From the IMG/VR virus record IMGVR_UViG_2534681674_000013, positions 1 to 4,210 of that record: a stretch of 4,210 nucleotides of DNA. The stretch is one strand, 5' to 3'. Below, in pieces: positions 3,793 through 4,027 of the stretch. Below the pieces are notes generated by a model. The model was not told where the DNA came from and made no database searches. It was given only the letters and a program-made list of their open reading frames with translations. A program made the translations under genes and the position numbers. Every line of letters starts with the position of its first letter. The stretch's first letter is position 1. This stretch comes from a virus (lineage: Duplodnaviria; Heunggongvirae; Uroviricota; Caudoviricetes).

Positions 3793-3799
3793 TGTCTCA

Positions 3800-3804
3800 C
3801 CCTT
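3800..3804 (-). promoter_or_regulatory. Ribosome-binding site (Shine-Dalgarno) of J
   Basis: Minus strand reads ACAGUAAAGGGUGAGACA-AUG. AAGGG lies 7 nt upstream of the chosen J start codon. Confidence 0.5.
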
Positions 3805-3823
3805 TACTGTGATAACTGTTACG

Positions 3824-3856
3824 CACAAAAACAACAGGCATCCCGGAGGATGCCTG
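3824..3856 (-). terminator. Intrinsic-terminator-like hairpin plus U-tract just upstream of the J RBS
   Basis: Perfect 9-bp GC-rich stem CAGGCATCC (3835-3843) / GGATGCCTG (3848-3856) with a 4-nt loop. On the minus strand it is followed immediately by UUGUUUUUGUG (complement of 3824-3834). An AU-rich tract precedes the hairpin on the minus strand. Confidence 0.55.
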
Positions 3857-3882
3857 TATCATGACTGAATAAAAATTCTGAA

Positions 3883-3900
3883 TATCTTCACATTTTCTGT
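3883..3900. repeat. Imperfect direct repeat, copy A (TATCTTCACATTTTCTGT)
   Basis: CATTTTCTGT at 3891-3900 is identical to 3981-3990. The flanking ATCTTCA (copy A) and ATCTT (copy B) extend the match with a 2-nt indel. The copies are 90 nt apart. Confidence 0.6.
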
Positions 3901-3974
3901 ACGCCCCCGTGGCAGATATCATTCCCGGGCGTTACAGTTTTTTCGGGCCAATAAAAACAAAACTCCCTGTGGTT

Positions 3975-3990
3975 AATCTTCATTTTCTGT
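3975..3990. repeat. Imperfect direct repeat, copy B (AATCTTCATTTTCTGT)
   Basis: See copy A. Copy B lies immediately 5' (plus strand) of the 3992-4015 hairpin. Confidence 0.6.
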
Positions 3991-3991
3991 T

Positions 3992-4022
3992 CCCGCAGCC
4001 TTCGGTCACTGCGGGATTTTTT
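3992..4022 (+). terminator. Plus-strand intrinsic-terminator-like hairpin plus T-tract (orphan; antisense to the late operon)
   Basis: 7-bp stem CCCGCAG (3992-3998) / CTGCGGG (4009-4015) with a 10-nt loop. On the plus strand it is followed directly by ATTTTTTCGCTTTTA (4016-4030). On the minus strand the same hairpin is followed by AACAGAAAAUG, so it is not a good terminator for I. No plus-strand gene is evident upstream of it. Confidence 0.45.
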
Positions 4023-4027
4023 CGCTT

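Follow-up and report, generated by a model that had tools for sequence, protein, structure and literature searches.

A probable allele of the PasB/EcOnc22-24 small RNA encoded antisense in the I-J junction of a lambda-like prophage tail operon

The first 4,210 nucleotides of the viral record IMGVR_UViG_2534681674_000013 (Caudoviricetes), here called the window, hold the tail end of a lambda-like prophage in which every gene is on the minus strand. In the spacer between the tail genes I and J we identified a small RNA (sRNA) gene on the opposite strand, and we consider it probable (roughly three chances in four) that positions 3929-4022 of the plus strand are an allele of the PasB/EcOnc22-24 prophage sRNA, carried as a gene of its own antisense to the late tail operon. 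PasB of enteropathogenic Escherichia coli (EPEC) and EcOnc22-24 of enterohaemorrhagic E. coli (EHEC) are, as judged by homology, one family. The element is thus already published as a kind; the window copy is a diverged allele, and the sRNA family is not new.

The insert at the I-J junction

Gene I has its stop codon at 4028-4030, and the ATG of J, at 3792 on the minus strand, aligns with the MGKG start of lambda J; the gap between them is 235 nt (3793-4027). In lambda the I-J gap is 60 nt (15445-15504), and the surplus in the window is about 165-175 nt. An earlier reading of this DNA made without database searches (the sequence-only reading) had given the same 235 nt and, relative to lambda, a surplus of roughly 150-180 nt; both figures stood, the surplus being ~175 nt by direct comparison, and canonical lambda does not carry a spacer of ~235 nt. 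Alignment of the junction with lambda placed the insert at about 3860-4027, on the I side of a hairpin whose position is shared with lambda. The whole spacer is 56% A+T compared with 44% for the window.

A set of 80 related I-J junctions was collected from viral contigs and their spacers sorted by class; the 234-259-nt class comprised 29 distinct sequences. A covariance model built from 16 aligned sRNA alleles, with PasB included and the window's own type left out, matched 3929-4023 of the plus strand over its full length with 63.4 bits (E 1.6e-12), the next match scoring 12 bits. The model found an sRNA copy at every Sakai I-J junction fetched and none in the lambda I-J gap. The sequence-only reading had proposed a regulatory RNA gene inserted here and had left its strand open; the covariance-model match now assigns it to the plus strand, antisense to I and J, and the proposal is supported by an insert that is not in lambda and is homologous to the Hfq-bound PasB and EcOnc22-24. 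A search of Rfam, which that reading had recommended, returned no family for the spacer, and likewise none for the rest of the window, the EPEC PasB locus or two other spacer classes, where only sub-threshold noise was obtained.

Relation to PasB and EcOnc22-24

PasB is an 83-nt RNA encoded on the minus strand of NC_011601.1 (1466343->1466261) in prophage PP6 of EPEC O127:H6 E2348/69, and was detected with the Northern probe AATCCCGCAGTGATCGCGGAGCT (Pearl Mizrahi et al. 2021, PMC8550237 Table S6). The position of its 5' end derives from RNA coverage and Northern size, its level in an hfq mutant was lower (log2 -6.8 and -2.4), and 37 interactions were recorded by ligating and sequencing interacting RNAs (RIL-seq) (PMC8550237). 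NC_011601.1 has both flanking genes on the plus strand, with the end of the tail assembly gene I at 1466255 and the start of gpJ at 1466496, and the 240-nt I-J spacer therefore contains PasB, a minus-strand RNA, in antisense orientation. PasB ends at the last U of the terminator next to the I stop; the Northern probe is this terminator's reverse complement. The EPEC spacer could be aligned with the window spacer along its entire length, and the window sRNA was 77% identical to PasB over the RNA.

EcOnc22, EcOnc23 and EcOnc24 were reported as plus-strand Hfq peaks, obtained by crosslinking and analysis of cDNA, in prophages Sp15, Sp14 and Sp11 of EHEC O157:H7 Sakai (Tree et al. 2014, PMC4104026 Table S2), with a Northern size of ~85 nt and an RNA destabilised without Hfq (PMC4104026). 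All three peaks fall within I-J spacers of NC_002695.2, where I and J are on the minus strand. Since PMC4104026 used an earlier genome version, the shift to NC_002695.2 was calibrated. It was 0 at 1.18 Mb, where the Sp4 convergent terminators lie exactly at the ends of EcOnc05 and EcOnc08, about +140 at 1.27-1.94 Mb, with the AgvB1 sequence as calibrator at 1.94 Mb, and about +137 at 2.92 Mb, from the homology of EcOnc42 to EcOnc21. Old stx2A coordinates presumably agree with this shift. With a shift of about +137 to +142 the EcOnc22-24 peaks cover nt ~15-80 of a predicted 91-nt RNA ending at the plus-strand terminator; an unshifted placement of EcOnc22 over the J-proximal hairpin of NC_002695.2 was dropped after the calibration. 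EcOnc sRNAs placed uncorrected on the current RefSeq record end up off by about one sRNA length. The PasB coordinates need no correction, and they favour the terminator-proximal RNA.

The window sRNA was 73% identical to EcOnc22. Position, strand, terminator and conserved blocks are, as homology shows, common to the window gene, PasB and EcOnc22-24. This link is absent from Table S6 of PMC8550237, which gives EHEC homologues for PasA and PasD and none for PasB, and EcOnc is nowhere mentioned in the 2026 preprint of Zhu, Shabalina and Storz (doi 10.64898/2026.05.13.724894). The window allele itself was absent from eight Sakai tail regions (Sp4, Sp6, Sp9, Sp10, Sp11, Sp12, Sp14 and Sp15), Sp3, Sp8 and Sp17 lying outside the check.

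Several of these Sakai regions are rearranged. J is split into 2-3 open reading frames (ORFs) in Sp15, Sp14 and Sp12 (L001, L002 and L093), K and I are missing in Sp9 (L092), and Sp6 (L094) is without J and has effector genes in its place; the sRNA gene is kept in all of these five that still have the junction. After shifting, EcOnc54 falls at 31554-32330 of the Sp6 region, between a minor tail gene and an inserted regulator/antirepressor pair, and may mark another tail-operon site with an Hfq-bound RNA.

Structure of the gene

The features of the window and of the related sodC-bearing spacers are listed in Table 1. In the predicted fold of the terminator, a 10-nt loop separates CCCGCAG (3992-3998) from its pairing partner CUGCGGG (4009-4015), and A and U6 (4016-4022) follow, so that the RNA would end 5 nt short of the I stop codon. 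This is the plus-strand hairpin with T-tract noted from the sequence at 3992-4022; a simple terminator scan missed it because the loop limit of the scan was 8. The stem was invariant in 20 of the 21 aligned spacer variants, with loops of ~3 to 20 nt.

Table 1. Features of the window and of the sodC-bearing spacers
Feature	Position	Strand	Basis
Predicted primary transcript, PasB/EcOnc22-family sRNA, 94 nt	3929..4022	+	covariance-model match; identity to PasB/EcOnc22; fold
Equivalent of the 83-nt EPEC PasB species, may be a processed form	3943..4022	+	PasB coordinates mapped and aligned to the window
Intrinsic terminator: 7-bp GC-rich stem, variable loop, A + U6	3992..4022	+	fold; 21 spacer variants; PasB Northern probe
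Conserved single-stranded core AUCUUCAUUU, probable main seed	3976..3985	+	near-invariant in all alleles; PasB partner complements
A-rich tract AAUAAAAACAAAACUCCC: four A-R-N triplets, then CUCC	3950..3967	+	read from sequence; AAYAACUCC conserved across alleles
Promoter position: -35 TTCTGT (3895-3900), 16-nt spacer, -10 TATCAT (3917-3922)	3895..3922	+	column-for-column alignment with PasB TTCACA-16-TATAAT
AT-rich block upstream of promoter (about -70 to -36) with invariant ATAAAAnTTCTGAAnnTCTTCACATTTT	3860..3894	+	invariant in 235-nt and 342-nt spacer classes
Sense-strand (I-to-J) terminator-like hairpin with U-tract, 31 nt upstream of J start	3824..3857	-	scan; fold; lambda alignment
J leader with ribosome-binding region (AAAGGGUGAGACA, then AUG)	3793..3823	-	sequence; alignment with lambda and EPEC
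Gene J, host specificity (central tail fibre)	403..3792	-	ORF; annotated J in homologous records
Gene I 3' end, tail assembly, runs off the window	4028..4210	-	ORF; annotated I in homologous records
lom 5' part	roughly 1-335	-	ORF listing
sodC-bearing 851-nt spacers	L008, L010, L030 and eight more; Sp4 L091 12488-13338; Sp10 L090 11485-12335		

Apart from the terminator the sRNA body is predicted to be open, running from the A-R-N triplets through CUCC and a U-rich stretch to the terminator and its U-tail. An open body with a terminator and U-tail is the usual build of an Hfq-binding sRNA, which the window RNA would share. The A-rich tract could be an Hfq distal-face site, by analogy with the A-R-N motif of PMC4104026, and its CUCC could serve as an anti-Shine-Dalgarno-like motif.

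The alignment of 21 spacer variants contained (near-)invariant blocks comprising ATAAAAnTTCTGAAnnTCTTCACATTTT, GTGGCGCT followed by TATAAT, CTGCGTTA with a T-run, AAYAACTCC, TTAATCTTC and the terminator stem. Over 21-36 spacer variants the promoter block, CUGCGUUA with its U-run, AAYAACUCC, UUAAUCUUC and the terminator stem were conserved, and variation was concentrated in the terminator loop and in the stretches between conserved blocks, for example from CTCC to TTAATC. In PasB and other alleles the promoter hexamers, TTCACA-16-TATAAT, match 11 of 12 consensus positions, and the promoter scan of the EPEC locus calls a promoter on the PasB strand. A different promoter, TGGCAG-17-TACAGT (3910-3938), was tried for the window and dropped for the hexamers that align with the TATAAT of the other alleles.

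The AU-rich tract noted at 3860-3890 is present, with 74% A+T. It lies just upstream of the promoter, outside the RNA, and the block to which it belongs (3860-3894) may act as an upstream promoter (UP) element or regulator site. The imperfect direct repeat was also found, with an exact 10-nt core CATTTTCTGT at 3891-3900 and 3981-3990 and an imperfect extension to TCTTCA(CA)TTTTCTGT; a 10-nt repeat in two copies is, taken alone, weak evidence.

The hairpin upstream of J

The minus-strand hairpin with U-tract reported by the sequence-only reading is present, with a stem at 3834-3857 (10 bp, loop of 4) followed by UGUUUUUGUG at 3824-3833. It was called as a terminator by the scan, for which 0.5 calls were expected in shuffled sequences, and folds with -19.7 kcal/mol (z = -4.2 against shuffles). 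One stem pair switches from U:A to C:G in 7 of 18 variants. In the alignment of window, lambda and EPEC, lambda has a hairpin, GAAACCGCC-UGCG-GGCGGUUUU, at the same position, and the window hairpin, upstream of the sRNA promoter and outside the transcribed sRNA, therefore belongs to the junction and is not an insert boundary. Thus the suggestion of an insert bounded by two terminators did not hold: the insert proper, as delimited by this alignment, is the sRNA cassette at about 3860-4027. Candidate roles for the J-proximal hairpin are Q-sensitive termination and protection of an mRNA 3' end.

The 60-nt lambda spacer (15445-15504) has a strong sense-strand hairpin and U-rich run just upstream of J (-21 kcal/mol, z -2.8); we know of no function assigned to it. 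Between the hairpin and the J ribosome-binding site, equivalent to about 3800-3825 of the window, junctions L014, L020, L033 and L086 have 1-4 tandem copies of the 7-nt unit GTCTGAT, and the copy number explains much of the length range of the 234-259-nt spacers. At the other end of J a further intrinsic terminator is found on the minus strand at 357-395, between the J stop (403) and the lom start (~335), with a stem at 366-385 followed by TTTTTTATTG; a weak Rfam match to STnc50 at 357-395 is merely this J-lom terminator.

Distribution and other cargo of the slot

Identical spacer stretches were found in O157:H7, O26:H11, O121:H19 and other strains, with matches of 100% in O26:H11 11368, O121:H19 and O157:H7 PV15-279. 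Of 5426 complete E. coli genomes, 706 contained the spacer, at a median of 3 copies and always unannotated, and 464 contained the allele-specific 96 nt (3896-3991), at 1548 places and mostly in Shiga-toxin-producing strains. The PasB variants surveyed in the 2026 preprint differ by few nucleotides only (Zhu, Shabalina and Storz, doi 10.64898/2026.05.13.724894), and the window allele therefore seems to lie outside its BLAST-defined set. Beyond these near-identical variants we distinguished at least four diverged alleles. An apparent spacer of 1283 nt (L072) was an artefact of a duplicated J fragment.

The same slot also holds sodC (Cu,Zn-superoxide dismutase), on the strand of the sRNA, in 11 of the 80 loci and in Sakai Sp4 and Sp10. 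In these spacers sodC replaces the promoter and everything on the J side, the breakpoint being the sRNA start site, and the sRNA body and terminator persist as the sodC 3' untranslated region (3'UTR), downstream of sodC's own hairpin, with a model score of 84.6 bits; this copy may be a 3'UTR-derived form of the same sRNA. A class of 340-343 nt (L037, L074, L076, L079, L081-L083 and Sakai Sp12, L093 8393-8733) keeps the sRNA cassette and has the J-proximal part swapped for ~175 nt of unrelated sequence with a strong hairpin (AAACCCCGGTATCAGCAGATACCGGGGTTTTCTTTC) and T-run on the strand of the sRNA. Rfam gave no match for this replacement, which could be a second, tandem small transcript.

Seed and proposed action

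Eight RIL-seq partners of PasB were taken for their narrow read ranges, not at random, and their regions fetched. Whole-length duplex energies between PasB and these partners were no better than those of shuffles; since they were uninformative, perfect complementary words were counted instead. Perfect complements of at least 7 nt over PasB nt 35-40 were found in five of the eight partners, a count reached by 0 of 1000 shuffles. For tolC the complement is CAAAUGAAGA, which spans the start codon; ydbJ has UGAAGAUCA immediately upstream of its Shine-Dalgarno sequence, the trmJ leader has AUGAAGA, the smg-yrdD intergenic region AAUGAAG and ler AAUGAAGA. A second PasB site, nt 22-32, is complementary to fabR (11 nt) and ler (9 nt). 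The seed proposed from conservation by Zhu et al. agrees with the PasB nt 35-40 core (doi 10.64898/2026.05.13.724894). The window keeps the UCUUCAU core (AUCUUCAUUU, 3976-3985) and differs at the second site, the stretch from CUCC to the core being CUCCCUGUGG in the window and CUCCUUCACA in PasB.

In a lysogen, host RNA polymerase would be expected to start near 3929 from the promoter at 3895-3922 and to stop at the intrinsic terminator at 3992-4022, just before the I stop. The resulting RNA, ~80-95 nt long, would have an open body rich in A/U and would end in an Hfq-binding terminator hairpin with a U-tail. As suggested by the published PasB chimeras, this RNA would act in trans by base-pairing, mainly via the core, which is complementary to AAAUGAAGA(U) motifs, several of them at or beside translation starts (the tolC start codon and the trmJ and ydbJ leaders). 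Pairing would be expected to mask the ribosome-binding region at AUGAAGA-type starts. A second, allele-specific contact may form between CUCC and the core; since this second pairing stretch differs between alleles, overlapping and non-identical target sets are expected.

A wider proposal may be made, although we regard it as speculative and rather unlikely to hold as a whole. The I-J slot might carry interchangeable allelic sRNAs with one promoter frame, terminator and core seed (UCUUCAU) and a differing second pairing stretch, so that a strain with 3-8 lambdoid prophages would possess a set of related regulators whose target ranges are graded. As the gene is antisense to the late operon that surrounds it, the whole set would be shut down on prophage induction, read-through occluding the promoter and late mRNA titrating the sRNA; host targets such as tolC or virulence regulators would in this way be coupled to the lysogeny-lysis state. 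The sodC form would give the same RNA as a 3'UTR product.

Weighing of alternative explanations

Several points weigh against an active PasB-type sRNA in the window. The sRNA data come from PasB and EcOnc22, which are 77% and 73% identical to the window allele. The window hexamers (TTCTGT/TATCAT) match only 7 of 12 consensus positions and the promoter scan calls none in the window; expression of the allele may be weak or absent. Annotation puts the PasB 5' end ~15 nt downstream of the promoter-predicted start (3943 as against ~3929 in window coordinates), which points to a processed form or a mis-set annotation. The EcOnc22 assignment needs an inferred coordinate shift, since the unshifted peaks fall on the J-proximal hairpin, on the same strand, and the seed rests on eight hand-chosen PasB partners. 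The sRNA body folded no better than shuffles (z -0.07 to -0.8), giving no structural support. An unfolded body is normal among Hfq sRNAs.

The promoter leads directly to the possibility that the window allele is a decayed or silent homologue of PasB that has lost an effective promoter and persists through the recombining, spreading blocks of the tail region. The -35 matches consensus at 2/6 positions and the -10 at 5/6 in the window, compared with 5/6 and 6/6 in PasB; moreover, many host prophages are defective, J being split in Sakai Sp12, Sp14 and Sp15, and a near-identical multi-copy spread could mean recency and not selection. We nevertheless hold a silent copy to be unlikely, as register is preserved throughout (upstream AT-rich block, GTGGC, -10 position, seed core and terminator stem), only point variants of the allele were seen in 464 genomes and no truncated forms in the sample, and a 5/6 -10 hexamer with an AT-rich upstream region can still make an active promoter. 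A somewhat smaller chance is given to an RNA that is mainly cis-antisense to the late operon, lowering J or triggering RNase III cleavage by pairing with the I-J transcript or by convergent transcription, and being soaked up by late mRNA on induction. Since the late transcription unit encloses the whole gene, which is on the opposite strand, 80-95 nt of the RNA are perfectly complementary to late mRNA; lambda OOP RNA is a lambdoid precedent for a short antisense RNA. On the other hand, the RNA overlaps neither the I or J coding sequence nor the J ribosome-binding region (which, with the J start, lies at 3792-3806): 5 nt separate its 3' end from the I stop, and ~135 nt lie between its 5' end and the J start. 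The Hfq-bound chimeras of PasB with many unlinked core and virulence mRNAs fit trans action, and many defective carrier prophages still keep the gene. The two modes are compatible and not exclusive.

For the minus strand the case is poorer still. That a second sRNA ends at the 3834-3857 terminator, giving two divergent sRNA genes, seems very unlikely to us: the hairpin and U-tract do form a strong intrinsic terminator, with one compensatory pair and ~35 nt of conserved sequence upstream, but in neither the window nor EPEC did the promoter scan find a sigma-70-like promoter on this strand, the register of the conserved upstream block is that of the plus-strand promoter, lambda has a hairpin there without the insert, and Table S2 of PMC4104026 lists no minus-strand Hfq peak for the EcOnc22-24 loci. 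The 31-codon ORF (3888-3983, minus strand), which the sequence-only reading had listed among the features of the spacer, is indeed there, with GGGAA 7 nt upstream of its ATG and first codons (MKIN) that recur in many variants. It is not conserved, however: 16 of 36 unique spacers have ACG or ACA in place of the ATG, the length varies between 7 and 54 codons and the alleles do not share one reading frame, while MKIN is the reverse complement of the sRNA seed and the putative Shine-Dalgarno sequence is part of the terminator stem. We know of no ribosome-profiling or mass-spectrometry evidence for the peptide, and a small late-operon protein is hardly credible here. The PasB-family sRNA gene on the plus strand thus remains our preferred reading.

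Significance

With this assignment a PasB-family sRNA gene, with its strand, promoter position, seed and terminator, can be annotated on a stretch that occurs unannotated in hundreds of pathogenic E. coli genomes and has no Rfam entry, and PasB and EcOnc22-24 can be joined under one family. The gain is modest because the sRNA itself was already described. The allele diversity bears on the number of distinct regulators in Shiga-toxin-producing strains, and the seed drawn from published chimeras makes function testable on tolC, ler and fabR.

Comparison with known systems

The EHEC Hfq-binding prophage sRNAs cited as precedent by the sequence-only reading proved apt in the case of EcOnc22-24, which are homologous, and inapt in that of the anti-sRNAs AgvB and AsxR (RF02702, RF02703), which differ in site and family. 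Like the window gene, AgvB and AsxR encode short prophage RNAs that are conserved in the 3' part and variable in the 5' part and contain an A-R-N-rich tract; the AgvB and AsxR RNAs are bound by Hfq, as would be expected, by analogy, of the window RNA. They sit downstream of PR' and a moron gene (PMC4104026), whereas the window locus is in the tail operon. No Rfam match to them was obtained in the window even at E up to 10, and no sequence match was found. AgvB had been suspected from the CA-rich CACAAAAACAACA at 3824-3836 and was ruled out, the sequence being unrelated and the locus being downstream of PR'. In the part of the RIL-seq table covered here PasB has no sRNA-sponge partner, and its sole non-mRNA partner in those rows is an intergenic RNA next to pasA.

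The insert resembles the morons of lambdoid phages (Juhala et al. 2000, cited in PMC4104026), among them the prophage sodC cassette of the same slot, in being a unit between genes adjacent in lambda, with its own terminator and promoter position and an A+T content above that of its surroundings. The moron signature proposed from the sequence therefore stands in part: the insert is absent from lambda, is distinct in A+T and has its own terminator, which is clear, but it has no protein cargo, with no conserved ORF on either strand of the window spacer, and its promoter match is weak in the window allele though strong in others. The cargo here is an RNA whose gene faces the opposite way to the operon.

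Lambda OOP is a further short RNA that ends at a terminator and is directed against a lambdoid operon; its overlap is with the 3' end of cII, and its action is in cis and involves RNase III. In contrast, no coding sequence is overlapped by the window RNA (3929-4022), whose relatives pair on Hfq with mRNAs of unlinked genes.

EcOnc22-24 share with the window gene the slot, strand, terminator and conserved blocks, and EcOnc22 differs from it in the 5' half. PasB likewise occupies the I-J slot of a lambdoid prophage in antisense orientation, with the same terminator stem and U-tail a few nucleotides from the I stop, the AT-rich upstream block, the promoter register, AAYAACUCC and the core AUCUUCAUUU (PasB nt 34-43). 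The two differ in the stretch from CUCC to the core, which is UUCACA in PasB and CUGUGG in the window, in the terminator loop, and in the promoter hexamers, 11/12 in PasB and a weaker 7/12 in the window. They also differ in their occurrence: PasB-specific sequence was found in 919 genomes, almost always as a single copy, whereas the 464 genomes with the window allele have a median of 3 copies each.

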